The translations under genes were made by a program, and so were the position numbers. The notes under the pieces were generated by a model that worked only from the letters and a program-made list of their open reading frames with translations, made no database searches and was not told where the DNA came from. Of a stretch of 64,000 bases of DNA, positions 1,213-49,820 are shown piece by piece (position 1 is the stretch's first letter; each line of letters starts with the position of its first letter). Where the stretch lies: NCBI RefSeq assembly GCF_009931435.1, contig NZ_CP043415.1. One strand, given 5' to 3'. Source of the stretch: Escherichia coli. GTDB lineage: Bacteria; Pseudomonadota; Gammaproteobacteria; Enterobacterales; Enterobacteriaceae.

Positions 1213-4029
1213 TTATTTTTTATGCTGGTAACTCTTTGCTTTCTCTAAAAGCTCTTTCGGACTATCAGCACCAGGTATTCTTTCCTGAGCCAGCTTTTCT
1301 TCATTATATTTATTATTCTGAGTTAATGCTTCTGTTTTATGATGATTTTGTAGTTCAGAATACTGCCCTTTTACAATATTTTCCTCGCCTCGGATGCTGT
1401 TCTGAGTATCTCCGATATTACCTCGATATTCTGTGACCATATTATCAACCTGATGTTTTACATCATTACGGATATTACTGTCCTGCGTTCTTTGCTCAAT
1501 AATGGCCTGATGTCCCTGATGATCAGCAATAATATCCTGGCTGCCACCACCCGAAGGTACGCTCTCCATTCCTTTACCTATATCTCTACGGGATTCACGC
1601 CAGGTGTTATCAACACCAGGCTGTACCTGTTCCTGCACAAAAGACCACGCCATAGCCCGACGGCGTTCTGCAATCTCCGGCGAACTGGTATTTGTCAGAA
1701 TAGCTTCAACATCCTGCGGTGCGTTTTTCATCACATACTGTGCAAACTGTTGCGACAGATCTTCACTCATCTGCCCACTCATACTCTCAGTACGGGATGC
1801 CATTTCAGCATATTCATGGCTGCGGGTCATATTCGTCGTGTACTGGTCGTAACTCTGTTTCGCTGAATTCAGGGCTGCAGACAACTGATCCACACGGGAA
1901 TCAGCATTATTGTCAGTATGGCTGCCGGATTCACTGACTTTGCGGCTGGTAAAGTAATCGCTGGCTTCTTTAAAGTCTTGTGTAGCTCTGGCATCGATAT
2001 CATGACGAGCATCATGGCTGGCCCGTGAACCACTACTGGCTTCATGTGAGTCAAGATCACTGCCATCAATGCTTGCCTTAGCTCCGGCCTGGAGACCAAC
2101 CCCTCCACCGTTACCCAATACACTTATGCCTAAATGCCCTTTAGCATAAGCATCACCGTAAAGGCCAAGCGACGCATTTGTACTTCTCGAGGCCAGTTCT
2201 CTCGTCGCCTGCTCATTACTGATATTATGCGCCTTCGCATAGCTTTCCACTGCACTGCGCATACGGCTGGCCATCATGGAGTCCTGAGCACTCATCGTGC
2301 TGTCAGCACCACCAGTGACAGAGTCACTGCTCCCCCGGTTAGAGCCAAACTGACTGAGTGTGTTCCAGGCACTGGCAATACTGCTGCTGAAACCATGCAG
2401 GGCACTTTCGGCTCTGTTCGACGCCTCCCGGGCCATTTCCTGTTGTGCCGCTGCAATCTGACGCGTTGCATTGATACCGACCGGTAACCGGGACATCGCT
2501 CCGCTTGCATCCATCACCATATTACCGTCACGGGTCTGTGTGGCGGTTGCGCCACTGCCGGTCTGGTACATCATCTGACCAAACGACGTGGTGCTGTTGG
2601 TGCTCCAGCTGAAGCCGTTCACGTTTTCCGTCTGCATGTTGCCGTAGGAGTAATTACCGTCAACCACACTGCCTGCTGCACTGGCCGTTGGACTGATAGA
2701 TGAAGAGGCGAAGTGGCTGTACACGCTGGAAAAACCTGCGCCAAGGCCTTTTACCATCATCCATGACAACGGGGGGATCATGGCTGAAAGATACCCGGCA
2801 GTGGAGGCCAGGTCAGAGTATTTCAGCTGTATCTGAGAGAGTTCAGACAACACGACCGGCGCACCATTCTGTTTCGCATAGAATGTCATGGCACTGTTCA
2901 GAATGGCATACAACAACGGCCAGGTCTGCAGCCACATCAGGGCAAACACATACCCCTTTAATACAGACAATGTCAGCTTGTTAAAGACAGCCGCCAGTAT
3001 CAGGAGCGGGAATATACCAATGGCAATCCCCGTCAGGATAGTCTGGACCATCGGCAGGTTTCGCATAGTTACATGACCAATGGAGACATGTGCCAGACGT
3101 TGTTTCTCCATCGATGACGTGGTGGCCAGACTTACCAGGCTGGCGGTGTCACCGTTACGGGCTGCATTACTGGTGATACCCTCTTTCAGGGCATTCATGG
3201 TGACGTTCTGGCGCATAATCTGGCTGGCAGACTGACTGGAGCCGTAGAAATAACTGTAACTGTCACTGACCAGTTGTCTGAATAACAGGTCCGGGTCCGG
3301 TCTGCCGCCAAATATCTGCTGCACATAATAATGCCAGGTCTTGCCTCCCGTCTTTGTATCGAGATTCAGCCTGTCTTTCAGCGTGACCGACGCATCCTTA
3401 CAAGTTATGAAATTATTATTGTTGTCATAAACGCCCCGTAGCGGGCTGGGGCGGGAAAAAATCAGCGTGTAGGGGTCAGCGGAGGCCATCAGGTCTTCCA
3501 GCGTGTATTTATGATTCAGGTAAATATCACCCAGCACGCAGTTCTGGACGTAGTCCTGGAACAGATTGATGATTTCCGGATTCCGGGACAGGAAATCGGT
3601 GCTTTTCACAATCAGATTCGCCCCGAACAGCATCCCCGTTTTGCTGTAGGTGACGCTGTCCGGTTGCGTGAAGATCATCTCGTAACTGGCCACCATTGCA
3701 TGCCCGATACGGGTCGTCAGTGAAAGTGGCATCGCCAGACCGACCGGCACATTATCCACCCGGTGAACTTTGACCAGGTCACTGTTATCAATAATCTGCA
3801 CCGATGTGCGGACATTAACCAGCAGGCTGATAAGCACAAACACGGCCACCCAGCCCAGCAAATCCATCACGTTGTGCCGCTGTACCCACATTACGGCCAC
3901 CGCGAGAACAGACAATGTGAGCGCAATTTTTTCAATGGAATCCCACGTCCAGGTTCCCATAAAGGCGGCAATGGCGTTCAGGTTATTCCGCAACCACTCA
4001 CCACCGGCAATCACATAAACTTCATTCAC
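1213..4029 (-). CDS. traG: TraG mating-pair stabilisation / entry-exclusion protein
   Basis: 938-aa ORF, same length as F TraG, membrane N-terminal half, located between traH and traS. Confidence 0.9.
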   Translation of the reverse strand: MNEVYVIAGGEWLRNNLNAIAAFMGTWTWDSIEKIALTLSVLAVAVMWVQRHNVMDLLGWVAVFVLISLLVNVRTSVQIIDNSDLVKVHRVDNVPVGLAMPLSLTTRIGHAMVASYEMIFTQPDSVTYSKTGMLFGANLIVKSTDFLSRNPEIINLFQDYVQNCVLGDIYLNHKYTLEDLMASADPYTLIFSRPSPLRGVYDNNNNFITCKDASVTLKDRLNLDTKTGGKTWHYYVQQIFGGRPDPDLLFRQLVSDSYSYFYGSSQSASQIMRQNVTMNALKEGITSNAARNGDTASLVSLATTSSMEKQRLAHVSIGHVTMRNLPMVQTILTGIAIGIFPLLILAAVFNKLTLSVLKGYVFALMWLQTWPLLYAILNSAMTFYAKQNGAPVVLSELSQIQLKYSDLASTAGYLSAMIPPLSWMMVKGLGAGFSSVYSHFASSSISPTASAAGSVVDGNYSYGNMQTENVNGFSWSTNSTTSFGQMMYQTGSGATATQTRDGNMVMDASGAMSRLPVGINATRQIAAAQQEMAREASNRAESALHGFSSSIASAWNTLSQFGSNRGSSDSVTGGADSTMSAQDSMMASRMRSAVESYAKAHNISNEQATRELASRSTNASLGLYGDAYAKGHLGISVLGNGGGVGLQAGAKASIDGSDLDSHEASSGSRASHDARHDIDARATQDFKEASDYFTSRKVSESGSHTDNNADSRVDQLSAALNSAKQSYDQYTTNMTRSHEYAEMASRTESMSGQMSEDLSQQFAQYVMKNAPQDVEAILTNTSSPEIAERRRAMAWSFVQEQVQPGVDNTWRESRRDIGKGMESVPSGGGSQDIIADHQGHQAIIEQRTQDSNIRNDVKHQVDNMVTEYRGNIGDTQNSIRGEENIVKGQYSELQNHHKTEALTQNNKYNEEKLAQERIPGADSPKELLEKAKSYQHKK

Positions 4030-5399
4030 AGCGTGCTCCCTCCGAAGTGATAGTTGTTCTGGTAACGACTGAGCATGCGGGCGGAAAGCTGCTGACGCAT
4101 GTAGCTCATCTGACGATCGACAACCAGCAGCGCATCCTGCTGTACCTGCACCTGTGACTGAAACGCCGCAATCTGCCGGGTGGCATCATTCATGTTGTCG
4201 TTAATATGCCCGATAACCGCTTCGTCATAATTTCCCGTGGCCACCATCGCCCGGGCCTGCTGTATCAGCTCCTGAATGTACTGCAGCAGGATGTCGTAAC
4301 CGATATAGTCCGTCAGCTGGTAAATCATACTGTTGGAAACACCGAGCATCTGCGGGTCAACCAGGTATTTGAAGACGGGGATGGTGGTACTGGAAATAAA
4401 GCCTTTTTCCTTGTCATCCAGAGGCGTGTCACTGACAGCCTTGTTCTGAATGCTGGCCAGAAGTTTAGTAATCTGAGACTTCAGTGCATTATCCCGGCTG
4501 ATGGTCACCGGTGTGTCTGCCACCACTTTCAGGCATTTATCAGAATCGTTGCAGTGATAAATTTTTGCTGTGCCGCCTTCCATCATGGCCCGGATAATTG
4601 AGCGGTCAGTGGTTCTGGCTGACAGCGGTGTGATTTCGCCGTTGGGACCAAACACCAGTGAGCCGGTCAGCGTCATCACAAACTCTTTCAGCTCTTTGTT
4701 GCCGTCAAACATTCTGTTTTTGGAAAGCGCATTCCACATGATGTTAATGTTTTTGGTCACCCGCTCCTTATCCTTGTCGCTGGCTTTATCCCTGACGCTG
4801 TCAGATTTACCGCCAACGGTACATCCCTGCCGGGAAGCCGCCCAGTCAGCAAAAATATTGCTCTCACCGGCAATGTCCTGACAGACTTTTTGCTGGGACA
4901 CCTGCGTCCGGGGGAAAAGCCCGCCGATAATCCCCTGCGCCGCCTGGCAGGAACTGAGGTTCATGCTGTTAATGTCGCTTGCCATTTTCTGCAGGAAGTC
5001 TTTTGCGGTTTTGATTTCCGGCACCGTTGTCTGCAGGGCAAGGTCAAAAAAGTAACCGGCAGCATTACTCATAATCTGCTTAACAAAACGCTGCAGCTGC
5101 TCACCATTAATAAAACTGAACGAACCGAGATAAGCGTCGATGCCGCCACATCCGGCATTGATATCCGGCAGCGTCATGGAAATCAGCTGAACATTTTTGA
5201 CCTGAGTACGGGCATACAGGGAGCCGCCGTAAGCATAGCCGGCAGCCTGCCCCTGCCAGACGCCCGGCTGTGTGGTATTGGAGGCGAAGCCCAGCTTGTT
5301 AAAGAACTGATTCATGTCGCTGTTCACATCCGCTGACGCTGCAGGCGTCACCGTCAGTAAGGCGGCACAAAGAATAAAAAGAGGCTTAATGCGAAGCAT
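4026..5399 (-). CDS. traH: TraH pilus assembly protein
   Basis: 457-aa ORF with signal peptide (MLRIKPLFILCAALLTVTPAASA); length and position match F TraH. Confidence 0.9.
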   Translation of the reverse strand: MLRIKPLFILCAALLTVTPAASADVNSDMNQFFNKLGFASNTTQPGVWQGQAAGYAYGGSLYARTQVKNVQLISMTLPDINAGCGGIDAYLGSFSFINGEQLQRFVKQIMSNAAGYFFDLALQTTVPEIKTAKDFLQKMASDINSMNLSSCQAAQGIIGGLFPRTQVSQQKVCQDIAGESNIFADWAASRQGCTVGGKSDSVRDKASDKDKERVTKNINIMWNALSKNRMFDGNKELKEFVMTLTGSLVFGPNGEITPLSARTTDRSIIRAMMEGGTAKIYHCNDSDKCLKVVADTPVTISRDNALKSQITKLLASIQNKAVSDTPLDDKEKGFISSTTIPVFKYLVDPQMLGVSNSMIYQLTDYIGYDILLQYIQELIQQARAMVATGNYDEAVIGHINDNMNDATRQIAAFQSQVQVQQDALLVVDRQMSYMRQQLSARMLSRYQNNYHFGGSTL

Positions 5400-24094: not shown

Positions 24095-24147
24095 TGATAA
24101 TATAAGTAAAGCCCCGAAAAATTTTCGGGGCTTTACTTATATTATCA
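24095..24147. terminator. 53-bp perfect palindrome, likely bidirectional rho-independent terminator
   Basis: TGATAATATAAGTAAAGCCCCGAAAA/ATTTTCGGGGCTTTACTTATATTATCA, a GC stem flanked by A/T runs on both strands, between convergent genes. Confidence 0.6.
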
Positions 24148-24357
24148 TGACTTCCACTTTCTGAACTGTTCGGCAATCACCCATAACGCCTTGTTGATTC
24201 TTATATCACCATCAATACCTGTAATGACTCTTGTCCTGGTATTTTTCCCGGAGGCACTTCGCCCAGATAATCCACCTTTTATCATATTCTCCTGAACCCG
24301 CTGCCAGGTTGTCCAGAGATCGTTCTGTTTATCCTCCCGACGACGGGGAGTAATTAT

Positions 24358-25047
24358 TTATTCAGGCGTCACTGGCGTTTTATTTTCATCTTCATACCTG
24401 ACCATCAGTGCAGCTCTGCCAAATAAATGTTGCTCGTCACTGTTAAGATGAATTTCTTTCATTGCCTCCATATTATCAGTGACCTTATCAAAGACACCGA
24501 GTACTTCATACGCACCCTCGATAACCTGCCCGACAATATCACCTTTATGTGGAACGCGGATTTCGCCAAAATTATTTCCGCACACCAGGCCATTTGTGCA
24601 GACAAAACGAAAAATTCCGGGGTTCATCTGATAACTGGATGAACCATCATGTGAATTAAGCAGGATAATTTCAGGAACTTCCTGCCCGTTAATATGCCCT
24701 TCCCTGCGAAGACGTAACATATGTTTACTGTATTCGCGACGTCCCAAATCACGAACCCGACTCTGACAGGCAAAGAATGGCTGGAAACCTTCATCACGTA
24801 ACTTATTGATGATATTGATTGTTGGAATATACGTATAACGTTCACTCCGGGACTCATGTTTATCACCGGAAAATACCGAAGGCACGAACTGCATTAATTC
24901 ATCATCCGTTAAAGGACGTTCACGGCGGATGGAATTATACCGACCAAAACGGGAAGCTAATCGCATAACAGCTACTCCTTTATGAAAGAATAAATTTAAT
25001 AAAAAATTTTTCCGCTTAATATCATCCCTCCCGATCTCCATTAACAA
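24358..25047 (-). CDS. Conserved leading-region protein of unknown function (possibly DUF932-like); start uncertain
   Basis: 229-aa ORF, first sizeable gene downstream of repeat copy A. Family name is from memory, unverified. Confidence 0.5.
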   Translation of the reverse strand: MLMEIGRDDIKRKNFLLNLFFHKGVAVMRLASRFGRYNSIRRERPLTDDELMQFVPSVFSGDKHESRSERYTYIPTINIINKLRDEGFQPFFACQSRVRDLGRREYSKHMLRLRREGHINGQEVPEIILLNSHDGSSSYQMNPGIFRFVCTNGLVCGNNFGEIRVPHKGDIVGQVIEGAYEVLGVFDKVTDNMEAMKEIHLNSDEQHLFGRAALMVRYEDENKTPVTPE

Positions 25048-25384: not shown

Positions 25385-26005
25385 CTCTCTCTGGTTTTCA
25401 GCCCCCATCATCTGTTGAGTTTCGGGAGCCGCGGTTTTGACGTTTTGCGGGGACCTGCCTTTTGTTCCCTCCGGTATTCACCATCACCTGTTTGAGAACC
25501 TTCGCCGCAAGGGGCATCACTGCCACGGCCGGAAACGACTGTCCGGGGGCAGACCGCAAAAGTTTTTGCCTGCTTTTGGGCAAAAACTTTTGCGGGATGT
25601 GCATTTCACCCCTGGACTGGCGGAGACGGTTGTGGCTGTCTTTGCCCCCGGCGACAGGGGCTTAAACAGGTGAATGGCACCGGACACAACAACGGGCAGG
25701 GACCCGCCGCAACGACGTGAAGCGCGGTTTGCGAAACGGAGTTGCCCCTTACATCCCGGCGGTCTTTTGCCGGGATGTAAGGAGCGCAGGCCACGGCGCG
25801 ACCGGAACGGTCGCTGCAAGCCCGGGGTTTTCACGCATCGGACCGTAGCGACAGCCCGAAACCGCGCCAGCGGGTTTGGCGGAGACTGACAGGTGCGCCA
25901 GCAGCTGCCTGTCGGAGTCGGGCCTGACGACCGGATGCCGCCAGGCAGCCGGGAGCCGAAGGTGCGCCCGGCAGACAGGACAACACTGCAGTAGTCAGAA
26001 TCAGA
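25385..26005 (-). repeat. Leading-region repeat copy A (Frpo/ssi-like structured element)
   Basis: Near-identical to 32760-33408 and related to 36112-36600; internal hairpins GCAAAAGTTTTTGCC..GGCAAAAACTTTTGC, CATCCCGGC..GCCGGGATG, GCGACCG..CGGTCGC. Confidence 0.7.
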
Positions 26006-26280
26006 GCAGGAAGAAAAAGAGAATAATCACAGGGAAGGTGATGTGATTTCTGACAGGCCATAACCAGAGAAGGCGGGGGAAAAGAACGGGCGCCGCAGGC
26101 GCACGTTCATCCCCGTTCCTGAAGGGAAACGACCTTCCTGAAGTCAGGTTGTTCATGCCCGTACAACATCAGCAAGGAGAAAGGGGCTACCGGCGAACCA
26201 GCAGCCCCTTTATAAAGGCGCTTCAGTAGTCAGACCAGCATCAGTCCTGAAAAGGCGGGCCTGCGCCCGCCTCCAGGTTG

Positions 26281-26718: not shown

Positions 26719-27438
26719 TCACGCTGCCTCCCGGAGTTTGTTCGGCACCATCCACCGCTCCATCTCACGAACAGCATGACCGACCACCCTTGCCGCCATA
26801 CCAGCCTCTGCGATGACCTGCCAGAATGGCATATCCTGCCACTGCCAGCGTTCCATTCCGGCCAGTGACGGAAAACGCTCGCCCCACTGCCAGAACAGGG
26901 TTTCCAGGTCATGCTCTGCCACCCGGTCACTCCAGCGTGCATGCCAGCTTCCGACTGTTTCCGGCGAATGGAATGCCAGTTCGATTTCAGCCTGAGCGAC
27001 CAGCGCCTGGTACGCACGGGCTTTCTGCTCTGCCTCCCTCGCCTGCTGGCGGCTGTACTTCTGCATGACCAGCGCGGATTTATGGCGACTGCGTTCCCTG
27101 ACACGAAACCGCACCGACGGGAACAAGCGCTCTGCTGCATCACCGGGAAGGGGAAGGAGGCAGACCTCGCCCTGTGTTTCAATCAGCACATCGATGGCAT
27201 ACAGCCACTGAAGACGGTTGCCGTGCAGTTCTTCTGCGGTCAGGGACGGCATGAAAAATCGCAGGTCAGACAGCGATATCCTGCGGCTTCCGTTCAGACA
27301 GCGGAAAAACGCCCCCGCATACGGATATTCAGCCAGCGTGTTACCCTGATGGCGGCGTTTTTCGGTCTCCGCCACCGCCCGCCATGCGGCCTGTTGCTCT
27401 GTGCTGAGAGGAACCAGTGCCTGTGAACGTGCGCTCAT
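26719..27438 (-). CDS. psiA: PsiA, plasmid SOS inhibition protein A
   Basis: 239 aa, [78 protein letters not shown]...; start overlaps the psiB stop. Confidence 0.93.
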
Positions 27439-27923: not shown

Positions 27924-31844
<3,921 letters not shown>

Positions 31845-32759: not shown

Positions 32760-33408
32760 TGATGTTTTCAGCCCCCATCATCTTTTGAGTTTCGGGAGCC
32801 GCGGTTTTGACGTTTTGCGGGGACCTGCCTTTTGTTCCCTCCGGTATTCACCATCACCTTTTTGAGAACCTTCGCCGCAAGGGGCATCACTGCCACGGAC
32901 GGAAACGACTGTCCGGGGGCAGACCGCAAAAGTTTTTGCCTGCTTTTGGGCAAAAACTTTTGCGGGATGTGCATTTCACCCCTGGACTGGCGGAGACGGT
33001 TGTGGCTGTCTTTGCCCCCGGCGACAGGGGCTTAAACAGGTGAATGGCACCGGACAGAACAACGGGCAGGGACCCGCCGCAACGACGTGAAGCGCGGTTT
33101 GCGAAACGGCGTTGCCCCTTACATCCCGGCGGCCTTTTGCCGGGATGCCAGGAGCGCAGGCCACGGCGCGACAGAGGCGGCGCGACCGGAACGGTCGCTG
33201 CAAGCCCGGGGTTTTCACGCATCGGACCGTAGCGACAGCCCGAAACCGCGCCAGCGGGTTCGGCGGAGACTGGCAGGTGCGCCAGCAGCTGCCTGTCGGA
33301 GTCGGGCCTGACGACCGGATGCCGCCAGGCAGCCGGGAGCCGAAGGTGCGCCCGGCAGACAGGACAACACTGCAGTAGTCAGAATCAGAGCAGCAGGAAA
33401 AAGAAGAA
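32760..33408 (-). repeat. Leading-region repeat copy B (Frpo/ssi-like), immediately upstream of ssb
   Basis: Near-identical to copy A over ~600 bp, with the same hairpins. Confidence 0.7.
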
Positions 33409-35881: not shown

Positions 35882-36111
35882 AATTTAGCCTCTTATGACG
35901 TTAATTAATGAAACCGTAAAGACTGTTCGTGCAGTCTCTGCGGTGTGGATTAAGCAGGTCCCTGACCTGCTTTTTTCATATCTGCGTCTGACGTTCTCCG
36001 GTGTTTTCCTCCTTCTGTTCCTGCGTTCTCATTACCTGCCAGCCGGATGACTGACAGAACACATAAATGCGTATTGCCGGAGCCTGAAATAAATCCTGAT
36101 TTTTAAAGAAC

Positions 36112-36600
36112 ATCACCCGTTGAGTTTCGGGAGCCGCGGTTTTGACGTTTCGCGGGAACCTGCTGCTGTATTCCCTGTGGTATGAACTTCACCCGTTTGA
36201 GAACCTTCGCCGCAAGGGGCATCACTGCCACGGCCTGACGCACCTGTCCTGGGCAGAACGCAAAATTTTTTACCGGGTTTTGGGTAAAAAATTTTGTGGG
36301 CTGTTCATTTACCCTGGACAGTCAGTGCGGCAGGTTGTGGCTGTATGAGCCCCCGGCGACAGGGACTCATACGGGTGTGTGGCATCCGGCAGGCAATGAG
36401 CAGGGACCCGCCGCAATGACGGAGAGCGCGTGCGCGAAACGGCGTTGCGCCTCACATCCCGGCGGCCTTTTGCCGGGATGCCAGGAGCACAGGCCACGGC
36501 GCGACAAGGGTGGCGCGACCGTTCCGGTCGCTGCAAGCCCGGGGTTTTGCGGCGTCAGGGATGGAAGCCCGCCAGGGCGGAGACAGCTCCGCTGGCTCCG
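36112..36600 (-). repeat. Leading-region repeat copy C (diverged Frpo/ssi-like)
   Basis: Shares TTGAGTTTCGGGAGCCGCGGTTTTGACG, TTGAGAACCTTCGCCGCAAGGGGCATCACTGCCACGG and CCCGGCGGCCTTTTGCCGGGATGCCAGGAGC blocks with copies A and B. Confidence 0.65.
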
Positions 36601-41586: not shown

Positions 41587-41594
41587 ACGATCGG

Positions 41595-43995
41595 GTAGCA
41601 GTGATGCATTACTGCATCACCGCCCCCTAAGAACCGTACGTGCCAGTTTCCCGGCATACGGCTCAAGCCTTTCTAAGCCCACTCTCATGAGCCGGTTTCA
41701 CTACATGTATACCTTTCGCATGAACAAGTGTGTGACACATCGGATGCAGCATAATCAAATTGGAGAGGCAGTTGCTCCCTCCATCGACTCGCCGTATGAT
41801 GTGATGAACCTGCCACTGGGAATCAGATGTAATCCTCTCATCACATATGGGGCATCGGCCCCGCTGCTCAAACCAGATTTGAATGAGCTTTTTCCGTCCT
41901 TGCAGTTTGTGCCGCATTTTGTCTGCACAACGCTCCTCAAAGTACATCTCCCATTGAGGATCGAACGGATTAGCTGCAATTTTAATCGGTTTAAACCGGT
42001 TGATAGGCGTATCGATTGCTTTCCTCAGATTTGCATACTGAGGCTTACCGTTGGCAAGGAGTTCTCCGGTAGCCGTGGAGAAAGACCAGTTTCGGGCACC
42101 TTGTTGATGGAAATATCTTTTCCGAATCCACTTCTTTCCCTTATTGGGATGACGCCGAACAGCCCAACGCCATAAAGCCAGCCAGATCTCATTGTCAACT
42201 TTGTTAAATGCGACCTTGGCCACAATGTGTTGATGGTAAGCCGCCCACCCTTTGATCATTGGGTTCAGCATGCGGATCAACGTAAGCTGATCCATAGCTT
42301 TGTTGCCTTTGATTACAGCGCGTATTTTCTTTAAAAAGGAACTGACATTGGCTTTAGAGGGTTTGATCAGCATCTTACCGCCATATTTGCGAATGTTCTG
42401 TCCAAGAAAATCAAATCCTTCCTCGATATGTGTGATTTTCGTCTTTTCCGGAGAAAGCATTAATCCTCTTTCAGCCATAAACCGCCTGACGACGGGTAAT
42501 ACCTGAGACTCAAGAAGTTCTTTTGACTCTCCAGTGATAATAAAATCATCAGCATATCTCACATAGTTAACTTTCGGGTTAACCAATCGTCCCTTGACTG
42601 TTCTCTTTTTAAACTCCGAAGCAAGAAGCGCCTCCAGTCCATCCAGAGCAATGTTAGCCAGTACAGGAGAAATTATTCCCCCCTGAGGAGTTCCTGAATT
42701 TACAGGGAATAACTGCCCCTTTTCCCTGTAACCCGCTTTAAGCCACTTTGTCAGGATTTGTCTGTCTGTTGAGGTGTTATCGATTAGCCATTGATGAGAT
42801 ATATTGTCAAAGCATCCCCGTATATCCCCCTCAAGCACCCATTCAGCGGATGTTTTCTGCGCAAGAACACAGAAGCACTGTGCTATCGCATCTGCAGTAG
42901 ACCTTCCAGTCCGAAAGCCGAAGGATCTCTGGTCAGCAGTGACTTCAGCAACGGGCTCAAGAGCCAGCAAATACAACGCCTGCATCGCCCGATCCTTCAT
43001 AGTGGGTATCCCAAGGGGACGAGACTTCCCATTTGACTTAGGTATATAAACCCGCTTAAGTGGCTGTGGTTTGTAACCACGCCGTTTCAGCAGGTTAATA
43101 GCAAGAAATTTAACCTCCGGGGAAGACCATGTCTGACCATCAACCCCAGGAGTACGTTTCCCGCTATTCTCTGTAACTCGTCTGACAGCAACTGCTCTGC
43201 CACTAAACGAGTGAGTCAGTATCCATTGCAAGGATTTGACCTTGCCATGTTTACCTTCTCGTGTTGCCTTTACGATACGCGCTTGCAGTCTCCGCACTTC
43301 CCGATAGCACTGACGCCAGTTGATACTGTGCCAGGAGTCACCGTTAAGTAAGGACGCACCTTTACAGGTTGTAGCCTGCTCAGTCATCTGCTTTTCCTTT
43401 CTGGAAGATTACTCAAACTCTCTCGTAATGAAAGACCCAGTGGAAGTCTGCCCGCTTTCGCGTAGGGTAATGTTGCCGGGCTCAACCCTTATCCGGTCCA
43501 TTACAGACTGGCATTCGCTTTTTCCACCTTCTTTTACCCGCACCGCCAACAGTATCCCTTGCGGTTAACCTGCCTCACGAGGCAGCGATACGGGCTTACC
43601 ATGTTCCACCTGAATAACAACAGTAGGTTAGACTCTGCTCACAACACCGGTGGTTTATTGTCCGTGTACCCCTAGCAAACAGAGGAGTAACCAACCACAT
43701 ACCTTTTGGTTCAAGCCTGTCAGCATCTTTGGCTTGTTCTGGTTAACGACGCTTCAGCAGTTCACATATGTTAGTCATGCTACCGAGCCTAGACCTCCTC
43801 CGCCTGATGCTGGCAGATTACATGTAACCTCACGGTTTCATGCGATCCGAAGATCCGGTTTCATTGTCCTGACAGCTTCACACCCCACCGTTACCAGTGA
43901 CGCATGTGTCAGTAGGCTACTGATGACGGAACATCAGGTTCCCTGACGGAATCGAACTCCGCTGGAACAATTATTCAGGCGACTTCATGTCGCAC
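41595..43995 (-). mobile_element. Group II intron (~2.4 kb) with intron-encoded RT-maturase-HNH protein
   Basis: Minus-strand 5' end GTGCGACATG at 43995; domain V GAGCCGTATGCCGGGAAACTGGCACGTACGGTTC at 41664-41631 overlapping the ORF stop; domain VI-like hairpin follows. 3' boundary approximate. Confidence 0.8.
41663..43387 (-). CDS. Group II intron-encoded protein (reverse transcriptase / maturase / HNH endonuclease)
   Basis: 574 aa; RT motif YVRYADDFII, maturase X region, C-terminal HNH block (CPICDERI…HHIIRRVDGGSNCLSNLIMLHPMCHTLVH). Confidence 0.92.
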   Translation of the reverse strand: MTEQATTCKGASLLNGDSWHSINWRQCYREVRRLQARIVKATREGKHGKVKSLQWILTHSFSGRAVAVRRVTENSGKRTPGVDGQTWSSPEVKFLAINLLKRRGYKPQPLKRVYIPKSNGKSRPLGIPTMKDRAMQALYLLALEPVAEVTADQRSFGFRTGRSTADAIAQCFCVLAQKTSAEWVLEGDIRGCFDNISHQWLIDNTSTDRQILTKWLKAGYREKGQLFPVNSGTPQGGIISPVLANIALDGLEALLASEFKKRTVKGRLVNPKVNYVRYADDFIITGESKELLESQVLPVVRRFMAERGLMLSPEKTKITHIEEGFDFLGQNIRKYGGKMLIKPSKANVSSFLKKIRAVIKGNKAMDQLTLIRMLNPMIKGWAAYHQHIVAKVAFNKVDNEIWLALWRWAVRRHPNKGKKWIRKRYFHQQGARNWSFSTATGELLANGKPQYANLRKAIDTPINRFKPIKIAANPFDPQWEMYFEERCADKMRHKLQGRKKLIQIWFEQRGRCPICDERITSDSQWQVHHIIRRVDGGSNCLSNLIMLHPMCHTLVHAKGIHVVKPAHESGLRKA

Positions 43996-44409
43996 ATTTG
44001 AGCACCAGTTTGGCATGGGAATTCTCCTCTCACATGCGGCCTCCACCAGGCCGTGCCGCACCTGTAACCGGGCGACCGCATACGAATGCAGGTGCGGCCC
44101 CGAAGCCGCAGCGCGTGGAGGAGGAACGACGAAACGTGACCGGGTGAGGAGGCCGGCGACAGCGACACACTTGCATCGGATGCAGCCCGGTTAACGTGCC
44201 GGCACGGCCTGGGTAACCAGGTATTTTGTCCACAGAACCGTGCACAAAATGCTGTGGATAAGCTGGACACAGCCGTCCACAGCAGGCATACAGCCACACC
44301 CTCAGAGAATTGAGCGTTTTTTAGTCACAATAATGACATTTGACTGTGTGTGGATTCAGTTATTAGAATACTGTATATGCATACAGCAAAAGAAAAGGGA
44401 GATGAGAAC

Positions 44410-44658
44410 ATGATCCGCATTGAAATTCTTTTCGACCGCCAGAGCACAAAAAACCTCAAATCAGGCACACTTCAGGCGCTACAGAATGAAATCGAACGAC
44501 GTCTGAAACCACACTACCCGGAAATCTGGCTGCGTATAGACCAGGGCAGCGCCCCGTCTGTATCTGTCACAGGAGCCCGCAACGACAAGGATAAAGAACG
44601 TATCCTGTCTCTGCTGGAAGAAATCTGGCAGGACGACAGCTGGCTGCCTGCAGCATGA
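44410..44658 (+). CDS. impC: ImpC, small regulator of the impCAB mutagenesis operon
   Basis: 82 aa from MIRIEILFDRQSTKNLKSGTLQALQNEIERRLKPHYPEIWLRIDQGSAPSV…; SD AAGGGAGA upstream. Confidence 0.85.
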   Translation: MIRIEILFDRQSTKNLKSGTLQALQNEIERRLKPHYPEIWLRIDQGSAPSVSVTGARNDKDKERILSLLEEIWQDDSWLPAA

Positions 44659-45074
44659 GTACCGTTTATCACCGTCCGGCTGACCCTTCAGGCAATGACA
44701 GTTACGTGCGACCGTTGTTTGCCGATCGTTGCCAGGCCGGTTTTCCTTCGCCTGCCACTGATTATGCTGAGCAGGAACTGGATCTGAACAGCTATTGCAT
44801 CAGCAGACCTGCAGCCACCTTCTTTCTGCGCGCCAGCGGTGAATCGATGAACCAGGCTGGCGTGCAGAATGGTGATCTGCTGGTAGTGGACAGGGCCGAA
44901 AAACCACAACACGGGGACATCGTTATCGCTGAGATCGACGGGGAGTTCACCGTCAAACGACTGCTGTTGCGCCCACGCCCGGCACTGGAGCCGGTTTCAG
45001 ACAGCCCGGAGTTCCGCACACTGTATCCGGAAAACATCTGTATTTTTGGTGTTGTCACTCACGTTGTTCATTGA
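44655..45074 (+). CDS. impA: ImpA (UmuD-like), C-terminus altered by a deletion
   Basis: 139 aa with LexA-like cleavage-site region (RASGESM) and catalytic domain; ends …GVVTHVVH, shorter than expected for UmuD-family proteins. Confidence 0.85.
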   Translation: MSTVYHRPADPSGNDSYVRPLFADRCQAGFPSPATDYAEQELDLNSYCISRPAATFFLRASGESMNQAGVQNGDLLVVDRAEKPQHGDIVIAEIDGEFTVKRLLLRPRPALEPVSDSPEFRTLYPENICIFGVVTHVVH

Positions 45075-46031
45075 TTTGCGGGGGGTGAACCGTTGCATCT
45101 CTCCGGAGGTTTTTGGTCATCAGCTCAGGGAACAAGTAAAGAGCTGGACAGGACTCGCCATGGGGGTGGGCATTGCACCTACAAAAACGCTGGCCAAAAG
45201 TGCACAGTGGGCAACAAAGCAATGGCCACAGTTTTCCGGTGTGGTCGCGCTGACGGCAGAAAACCGTAATCGGACCTTCAAGTTACTGGGGCAGCAGCCT
45301 GTTGGTGAAGTCTGGGGAGTAGGACGCAGACTGACGGAAAAGCTGAATGCGCAGGGTATTAACACAGCGCAGCAGCTGGCGCAGGCTAACACGGCATTCA
45401 TCCGGAAAAACTTCAGCGTCATTCTTGAGCATACAGTACGCGAACTCAACGGCGAGTCCTGCATATCTCCGGAAGAAGCCCCACCGGCAAAACAGCAGAT
45501 TGTCTGTAGCCGCAGTTTTGGTGAACGAATCACAGACAAAGATGCCATGCACCAGGCTGTTGTTCAGTATGCAGAGCGGGCCGCAGAGAAACTACGTGGG
45601 GAGCGTCAGTATTGCCGGCAGGTGGCGACATTTATACGAACGTCACCCTTTGCAGTGAAAGCCCCTGTTACAGCAATTCCGCTGTGGAAAAGCTTCCATT
45701 GCCTACACAGGACAGCCGGGACATTATTGCCGCAGCATGCAGAGCGTTAAACCATGTCTGGCGTGAAGGGTACCGCTATATGAAGGCAGGAGTCATGCTG
45801 GCTGATTTCACACCATCGGGTATAGCGCAGCCGGGATTATTTGATGAAATCCAGCCCCATAAAAACAGCGAAAAGTTAATGAAAACACTCGATGAACTGA
45901 ACCAGTCGGGAAAAGGGAAAGTGTGGTTTGCGGGGCGAGGAACCGCCCCTGAATGGCAAATGAAACGGGAAATGTTGAGTCAGTGTTATACAACTAAATG
46001 GCGAGATATTCCCCTGGCCAGGCTGGGTTAG
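45070..46031 (+). pseudogene. impB: impB (UmuC-like Y-family polymerase), N-terminally deleted and frameshifted
   Basis: Translation aligns to UmuC only from about residue 100 (…GVGIAPTKTLAK…); reading frame shifts near 45650-45665, with the C-terminal part continuing in another frame (45612-46031). Confidence 0.8.
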
Positions 46032-46032
46032 T

Positions 46033-46449
46033 TCAGTCATCTCCGAACATATTTTCAGCGTTTCTTCTGGTCTGGTCTTCACCGTCATTTCTCGACAGAC
46101 TCTGCTCTGTAAGAGGAGTACTGCAATCCACAGACGTATGGAGACCAGATTGTTTTTCCAGTAATTCAAGCAATTTCTTTTCAACCGAAAAAGCACCTGG
46201 TATTACGCTGGAAATCACCTTATTAATATCATCCAGAGTCGTATTTTCTGTCAGTAACTCCGATATCAGCAAAGGAAGACGTTTATCTATAGCTGCAAAC
46301 GCCGCACCAGTAACTAACATCGCGCGCATGAAACGTCCCCGCTCCTTCAGTTTTTCATTTGCAATGAGCTCATCTGCTATCTTATCTCCTGTCCGTTCAT
46401 CCGGGAAAAGTTCAAATGAGCAGCGTCTGGATTTATTTTCATCACTCAT
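46033..46449 (-). CDS. parR: ParR/StbB-like partition adaptor protein
   Basis: Small protein downstream of parM with similarity to R1 ParR (…ELLTENTTLDDINKVI…). Confidence 0.75.
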   Translation of the reverse strand: MSDENKSRRCSFELFPDERTGDKIADELIANEKLKERGRFMRAMLVTGAAFAAIDKRLPLLISELLTENTTLDDINKVISSVIPGAFSVEKKLLELLEKQSGLHTSVDCSTPLTEQSLSRNDGEDQTRRNAENMFGDD

Positions 46450-49056: not shown

Positions 49057-49419
49057 TTAAGGAATTCTTTTGAGCATAGACACCGCATCGGACTCAAGCA
49101 TCGAAAACTGCACCCGGTGCCGTGCAGCCACATCCAGTGCAAATACCTTCGTGTAGACCTCCGTTGAACTGATGGACTTATGCCCCATCAGGCTCTGCAG
49201 GACCTTCAGCGGTATACCGACATACAGCATGTGCATCGCATAGGAATGGCGGAACGTATGTGGCGTGACCGGGACAGATAACGTCACACCGTCAGCGGTA
49301 ACCGCTTCCCCAATCCAGGCCCTGACCGTTCTGTCCGTCACTTCCCAGATCCGCGCTTTCTCTCTCCTGCCTGTCCGTTTATTACGCCGTTCCATGGGGA
49401 TTTTCAGTGTGGCCACCAT
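49057..49419 (-). pseudogene. Tyrosine recombinase/integrase remnant (C-terminal catalytic region only)
   Basis: 120-aa ORF containing HTFRHSYAMHMLYVGIPLKVLQSLMGHKSISSTEVYTKV (H-x-x-R … Y catalytic motif); no N-terminal domain in frame. Confidence 0.7.
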
Positions 49420-49820
49420 CGTCTGCAGCTGGCTGACGTACCAAGAGTCGGAGAGCGGAACCAGCCGGTGAGTCTACTGCCCGGCTGGCGTTCTTCCTGC
49501 CGTCCTGGCTGCTTTTTCTGTCCGCTGCTTCAGAGTGACCAGCAGGTATTTTGGCAGTTCATCATGAACCATCGACATATCCCTCAGTGAAGAGGAGGCT
49601 TATGGATGGTGTCGCTGCGGTAATTTCAGAACGTGCCATCATCCGTCCTGTATAGCGCATCTTCCTGCAGAAGGGTTTCAGCCGCCGCGGTAATAAATGC
49701 TCGTACCGTGCAGATAGCATTCTGCACACTCCCCGAACTGATATACACGGGTTCAAGAGATTCGGTAACTCCATCACGGTGTACCAGTGCGTTTCGGACC
49801 TTGATTACCCTCTCAAGTTC

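Follow-up and report, generated by a model that had tools for sequence, protein, structure and literature searches.

An impB pseudogene in a remnant of the LexA-regulated impCAB operon on an F-type conjugative plasmid of Escherichia coli

The locus described here is, with a high degree of confidence, best explained overall as a copy, in the course of decay, of impCAB, an operon that is carried by plasmids, is regulated by LexA and is the plasmid equivalent of dinI and umuDC. It is recognizable from its gene content as an operon remnant, that is, as an incomplete member of the impCAB class, in which impB is an ordinary pseudogene inside a known operon that public annotation has already flagged. 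The window analyzed, a single stretch of 64,000 nucleotides, is a segment of an F-type conjugative E. coli plasmid with an IncFIA/FIB/FIC-like backbone. The segment runs from the tra genes through oriT, the leading region, imp and stbAB/parM to an aerobactin operon, with psiB, ssb, ardA-like and methylase genes and a DUF1281 gene in the leading region. The imp locus is flanked by the leading region on one side and by the stability genes stbAB/parM on the other. The coordinates of the relevant features are collected in Table 1.

Table 1. Features of the imp locus and of the intron upstream of it. Positions are those of the 64,000-nucleotide window.
Feature	Position	Strand	Basis
Group II intron, complete	41592-43995	-	Rfam D1-D4 at 43792-43938 and D5/D6 at 41590-41666; ltrA at 41663-43387
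imp promoter, TTGACT-18 nt-TAGAAT	44340-44369	+	Best sigma-70-like candidate within 43990-46200; agrees with the consensus at 10 of 12 positions
Second, weaker LexA-like box, AACTGAATCCACACACAGTC	44342-44361	-	Read directly from the sequence
LexA (SOS) box, TACTGTATATGCATACAGCA, predicted to be of high affinity	44369-44388	+	Near-consensus; overlaps the -10 hexamer
impC, intact, 82 aa, DinI-like	44410-44658	+	DinI profile NF007893, E 5.8e-11
impA, 139 aa (intact, 145 aa)	44655-45074	+	UmuD profile NF007621, positions 1-115 of 115; 142.8 bits (cut-off 110)
Deletion junction, 334 bp lost	45064/45065	+	Alignment and blastn breakpoints against pPWD4_103
impB pseudogene, piece 1 (codons 103 to ~301)	45065-45661	+	UmuC profile positions 103-303
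1-bp deletion causing a frameshift, where a C-run begins	45661/45662	+	Alignment; impB nt ~905, codon ~302
impB pseudogene, piece 2 (codons ~302-424 and native stop)	45662-46031	+	UmuC profile positions 300-422 of 422

Lesions in the operon were defined by reference to pPWD4_103, an IncI-gamma/K1 plasmid in which umuD and umuC are both annotated as intact and which is 97.8% identical to the window over positions 44300-46100. Altogether, three plasmids were aligned with the window, the others being C5 plasmid A and pRHB40-C03_2. The 1801 bp between positions 44300 and 46100 match thousands of enterobacterial plasmids, and the same stretch measures 2136 bp in intact operons; an identity of 97.8% over the retained 1801 bp was observed with many intact IncI operons. 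In the window, genes for impC (dinI-like), impA (umuD-like) and impB (umuC-like) follow one another on one strand, as they do in intact operons. The reading frames of impC and impA overlap by 4 nt, and the overlap of impA with impB has been deleted. A full-length ImpB of 424 aa is not encoded here, codons 1-102 being deleted and the frame being shifted at codon ~302. The alignment to intact operons that was proposed in the first-pass annotation of this DNA has therefore defined both the deletion and the frameshift, and it revealed no intact ORF of ImpB length at the locus.

The imp promoter is the same in intact IncI operons, and the LexA box that overlaps it upstream of impC was the sole match in the 64-kb window, where zero were expected by chance. 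Both LexA boxes correspond to those published for pTF2. A single central base distinguishes the main box from its pTF2 impCAB counterpart, TACTGTATATACATACAGCA, whose published heterology index is 1.60; the weaker box on the opposite strand has exactly the sequence of the other box given for impCAB in pTF2, with a heterology index of 13.49 (PMC12211044). When pTF2 was maintained in an SOS-constitutive host, ImpC was increased by 21-fold and ImpA by 9-fold, and these were the most strongly SOS-induced proteins of that plasmid (PMC12211044).

Both genes immediately downstream of the promoter are retained. impC had been described as intact, and the 82-aa ORF that matches the DinI profile differs from the IncI reference in a single codon. 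The further claim that impA is mostly intact, with an early end at ...GVVTHVVH, also holds: the protein has 139 rather than 145 residues and covers the full UmuD profile. Intact ImpA ends in ...GVVTHVIHRTRELR, and the change can be expressed as I138V together with loss of the last six residues, RTRELR (...THVIHRTRELR becoming ...THVVH, each followed by a stop). The gene reads across the deletion junction as GTT GTT CAT TGA, such that the new TGA stop (45072-45074) is impB sequence read out of frame. In the PGAP annotation of NZ_CP065971.1, impC is entered as the DinI-like family protein WP_000619113.1, and umuD is entered as WP_000109083.1 (139 aa).

The alignment of the shortened protein (ImpA139) with UmuD of E. 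coli, which has 139 residues, extends to V135 and includes the last conserved strand. Residues expected of a self-cleaving protein are present, namely A28-G29 (aligned with UmuD C24-G25), S64 within an SGESM motif and K101 within an FTVK motif. ImpA139 is, as predicted from these features, a protein of the UmuD/LexA type, with a cleavage site, a Ser/Lys dyad and a complete C-terminal domain. Given that the promoter and LexA box remain, along with impC and a near-full-length impA, DNA damage should still induce the DinI-like protein together with a UmuD-like protein that has a slightly shortened tail.

The proposal of an internal deletion across the impA-impB junction was borne out by a 334-bp gap relative to pPWD4_103. 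The deleted segment (positions 3766-4099 of locus L001) comprises the last 28 nt of impA (nt 411-438) and nt 1-307 of impB, which encode ImpB residues 1-102, and the pPWD4_103 version of this segment is 100% identical to that of ColIb-P9 (NC_002122.1). No microhomology was found at the two deletion breakpoints, which share no base when read from the alignment, and the deletion is therefore not repeat-mediated. Such an arrangement would be explained by a single illegitimate deletion of 334 bp that took impB codons 1-102 together with the 3' end of impA. The first base of the impB remnant is position 2 of codon 103, and the remnant is in the +1 frame with respect to impA. An ImpA-ImpB fusion was considered and ruled out: owing to this difference in frame, no fusion protein results, and impA stops within a few codons of the junction.

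The next reading frame had been reported to resemble UmuC only from about residue 100, and its match to the UmuC profile NF002955 does begin at position 103. Here, an ORF of 234 aa (45046-45750) matches the profile only at positions 103-303, and an ORF of 139 aa (45612-46031) matches it only at positions 300-422. A frameshift near 45650-45665 had been suggested to split the polymerase sequence into these two ORFs, and the alignment places it as a 1-bp gap at 45661/45662. At this site, the window has four C residues (45662-45665), compared with GCCCCC in the closest full-length allele and GAACCC in the IncI allele. The remainder of impB would have been frameshifted when 1 bp was lost by slippage in the C-run, in an event that was later than the deletion or separate from it. 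The remnant as a whole is 96.4% identical to nt 308-1275 of intact impB, and directly past the native impB stop lies a convergent stbB-like gene (46033-46449).

Residues 99-102 of intact ImpB form a SIDE motif that lies inside the deleted segment and aligns with the SIDE of a solved Y-family DNA polymerase IV. This motif carries the catalytic residues D101/E102 of UmuC, and the region of the N-terminal catalytic Asp (UmuC D6) likewise lies within the deleted segment. The remnant, which starts at residue 103, is thus devoid of the N-terminal catalytic acidic residues of a Y-family polymerase and, with the SIDE motif and the N-terminal Asp region gone, would not be capable of acting as a polymerase. 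These observations point to loss of polymerase function by impB, and the plasmid is predicted to encode no translesion polymerase of its own. The loss of ImpB residues 1-102, SIDE motif included, agrees with the first-pass view that the UmuD-like and regulator genes have been kept and that a functional polymerase has apparently been lost.

The distribution of the deletion was established using a 50-mer centered on the junction, with 25 nt on each side, which cannot seed a match on intact operons. A 100-bp junction query was uninformative, as its 50-bp halves were joined across the 334-bp gap on intact operons and carriers could not be counted. The 50-mer was present at 100% identity in 15 independently sequenced PLSDB plasmids, all of them conjugative and all from E. 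coli, with sources that were mostly cattle, yak or veal. Among 5,426 complete E. coli genomes, 7 also carried it at 100% identity, in each case on a plasmid. The precise ImpA139 sequence, a product that only the deletion can generate, occurs on 825 contigs of a public protein collection, and a second 139-aa ImpA variant occurs on 129 contigs. Given that the deletion is common to 15 plasmids, 7 genomes and 825 contigs, it is real and inherited. A 1-bp lesion in a homopolymer run is a typical site of long-read error, and it could be argued that the frameshift, the deletion or both are sequencing or assembly artefacts of a single record. Such an explanation can be given practically no credence, however, as the identical junction recurs in 15 plasmids that differ in laboratory and host of origin, at least 12 of these carry the very same frameshift allele, and the deletion-specific ImpA139 is so widely recorded.

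One RefSeq plasmid, NZ_CP065971.1, is 100% identical to the window over positions 44300-46100, and PGAP lists its umuC as a pseudogene that is "frameshifted; incomplete; missing N-terminus". Identity of the whole window with NZ_CP065971.1 was rejected, since the window has an extra IS21-family insertion of ~1.95 kb and 26 mismatches over the last 33 kb (30659-63999).

At least one relative, ARS-C301 (NZ_CP132984.1, locus L015), has the deletion without the frameshift. In this plasmid, a patch equivalent to window positions 45657-45746 has IncI-type bases (7 differences in ~90 bp), and the rest of the remnant is like that of the window. The patch covers the frameshift site, removes the frameshift and looks like a gene-conversion tract between imp alleles. 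Either the frameshift arose after the deletion or the gene-conversion patch erased it in ARS-C301; the order of the two lesions could not be fixed from this plasmid, since the patch spans the site in question. Other members of the same lineage have been damaged further, with an additional 13-bp deletion in pRHB40-C03_2 and an IS66-family truncation in pUTAK-5-1. Such added lesions in relatives are the signature of a pseudogene that is still decaying.

It has been considered whether a truncated protein comprising the thumb and little-finger region (residues ~103-424) is still made and has a non-catalytic role, for example, in binding the beta clamp, RecA or ImpA'. The remnant of ARS-C301 is one uninterrupted frame from the junction to the native stop, and the window itself holds the reading frames of 234 and 139 aa described above. 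By contrast, the remnant frame in the window is broken by the 1-bp gap, and the deleted segment included the native impB start codon (ATG) as well as the TGATG overlap through which its translation is coupled to the impA stop. Moreover, the remnant ORFs listed begin at TTG codons, with no ATG beside the new impA stop, and the further deletion and IS truncation seen in relatives follow the pattern of unconstrained sequence. A retained function of this kind is accordingly regarded as highly improbable. The preferred reading, that impB is a pseudogene, is consistent with the existence of intact homologues elsewhere, the disabling lesions in the window, the extra lesions in relatives and the PGAP flag.

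Several other features of the surrounding region were recorded. Between imp and the DUF1281 gene sits the group II intron, whose insertion point is 4-5 nt ahead of the DUF1281 start codon. It is on the same strand as the DUF1281 gene and ends ~345 bp upstream of the imp promoter, which is untouched; no such intron is present in the IncI reference pPWD4_103. An IS21-family element at ~28709-30658 (~1.95 kb; istA, 28795-29817; istB, 29814-30596) splits a ParB/RepB/Spo0J-like gene of the leading region and is missing from the otherwise near-identical NZ_CP065971.1. An 8-bp overlap between the flanks of this element suggests that its target site was duplicated. Self-matches revealed three repeat copies in the leading region, at 25394-26023, 32764-33408 and 36111-36548 (~440-640 bp, 83-96% mutual identity), and these may be the single-strand promoter/initiation regions of F-like leading regions.

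The region contains several decayed genes besides impB. In NZ_CP065971.1, PGAP annotates as pseudogenes a DUF932 gene with an internal stop (window ~24145-24966, where only a 229-aa ORF is left, at 24358-25047) and a tyrosine recombinase gene that is truncated and has an internal stop (window ~49057-49599). PGAP also calls psiA "frameshifted" in NZ_CP065971.1, and the window has an uninterrupted psiA ORF of 239 aa at 26719-27438 on the minus strand. It may be that this flag stems from a longer reference model and not from a genuine lesion.

Comparison with known systems places the locus closest to the impCAB operons of IncI1/I-complex plasmids, represented by TP110, ColIb-P9, pMS7163B, pTF2 and pPWD4_103. 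The window shares with these operons the promoter, the main LexA box (apart from the one central base), impC, impA codons 1-137 and an impB remnant that retains 96.4% identity to the pPWD4_103 gene, as well as the neighboring DUF1281 gene upstream and stbB/parM downstream. It differs from them in the absence of 334 bp and of one further impB base, and hence of a polymerase gene, and also in an ImpA that is six residues shorter, in the F-type backbone and in the group II intron upstream.

Similarities to the chromosomal systems of E. coli are also evident. ImpA139 aligns with UmuD of umuDC/pol V from residue 6 to V135, and both the cleavage site and the Ser/Lys dyad are conserved. Profile matches link the impB remnant to UmuC and ImpC to DinI, and regulation by a LexA box is shared with umuDC and dinI. 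Unlike in umuDC, the UmuC-like partner in the window is frameshifted and is without its first 102 residues. Given that this partner is broken, no polymerase of the UmuD'2C type would be formed from the plasmid genes alone.

Loss of impB is not confined to this lineage. The whole intact operon was searched against PLSDB, and an evenly spaced 60 of the 3,814 matching records were surveyed. Annotated near-complete operons were present in 35 of these, with a polymerase CDS in 26 and only umuD and dinI-like CDSs in the other 9. The reverse pattern, a polymerase CDS without the small genes, was observed in none of the 35 near-complete operons; this count of 9 versus 0 is taken from PLSDB gene tables, from which pseudogenes are omitted, and the records share ancestry and are not phylogenetically independent. 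In a second sample, drawn from records with the 334-bp segment and therefore conditioned on the 3' end of impA being present, polymerase-less operons with both small genes accounted for ~9 of 28. Taken together, these counts suggest that impB is lost more readily than impC-impA.

Retention of impC-impA is not general, however, because many F-type plasmids keep only the last 526 bp of impB. Approximately 19 of the 60 survey records have this form, in which the remnant (operon query nt 1465-1990) lies beside stbB and impC and impA have been lost. Nothing is annotated at the 526-bp remnant, which is a very common fixed form on F-type plasmids.

The lesions that inactivate impB elsewhere are varied. 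C5 plasmid A has a stop at W156 (W156*), impB truncations adjoin IS21-family elements at nt 670 and 1023 (p5505-1, CP099182.1), a further truncation adjoins an IS66-family element at nt 860 in pLSN03016011A_163, and impB indels are present in pEcoUTI1d. Single-base indels were found in sampled plasmids at nt 722, 887, 946, 1167 and 1264, some of which may be sequencing errors; the 1-bp deletion at nt 946 is common to two sampled plasmids. A 3-bp insertion at nt 741 and a stop at E399 (E399*) were also sampled. Thus, the window resembles other decayed enterobacterial imp loci in that impB is inactivated and impC and impA are still annotated, but the lesions differ case by case, and the commonest F-plasmid form is instead the last 526 bp of impB.

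Over-expression of impCAB results in a severe growth defect (PMC10286972), and this toxicity provides a plausible reason for the loss of impB. We infer that the operon would be of no benefit in a host with chromosomal umuDC and costly when over-expressed, such that loss of impB would be tolerated or even favored.

A more ambitious explanation is that selection maintains impC-impA as a module that works without the polymerase, and that impB is shed as the costly part. The roles of such a module may include DinI-like modulation of RecA filaments, tuning of the SOS response around conjugation or UmuD-like partnering with chromosomal UmuC. The window has an intact promoter, LexA box and impC, and the conserved core of impA is likewise undamaged, beside an impB gene with two or more lesions. 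In the two evenly spaced samples, the share of near-complete operons that keep the small genes without a polymerase CDS is roughly one-quarter to one-third; these samples are phylogenetically non-independent, however, and one was conditioned on the impA 3' end. The finding that nine of nine first lesions fall in impB has a probability of ~0.02 if lesions are proportional to coding length, of which impB makes up 65%. In addition, published median dN/dS values for I-complex plasmids are far lower for impC and impA (0.001) than for impB (0.11) (PMC10286972).

By contrast, impC and impA are wholly lost in roughly a third of matching plasmids, and deletion of impA, impB, impC or impCAB from pTF2 altered neither SOS levels nor conjugation frequency (PMC12211044). 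Within the deletion lineage, impC and impA codon differences number 0-2 synonymous and 0-2 non-synonymous per comparison, counts that are too small to show constraint in the form of purifying selection. Maintenance of impC-impA as a selected module is therefore considered unlikely, and decay of a probably costly and dispensable impB within a known operon is the preferred account.

Judged from the sequence, the most likely state of the locus is SOS-inducible production of ImpC and a slightly shortened ImpA without a plasmid polymerase. For the annotator, the message is that this plasmid cannot supply an error-prone polymerase and that SOS mutagenesis in its host would rely on chromosomal umuDC and dinB. 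Taken alone, the locus is of little significance. If impC-impA does act independently of a polymerase, the locus would be one stable and widely circulating example, as the occurrence of ImpA139 on 825 contigs attests. The wider pattern of impB loss is a modest lead as to how plasmids could balance the cost of mutagenesis against management of the SOS response.
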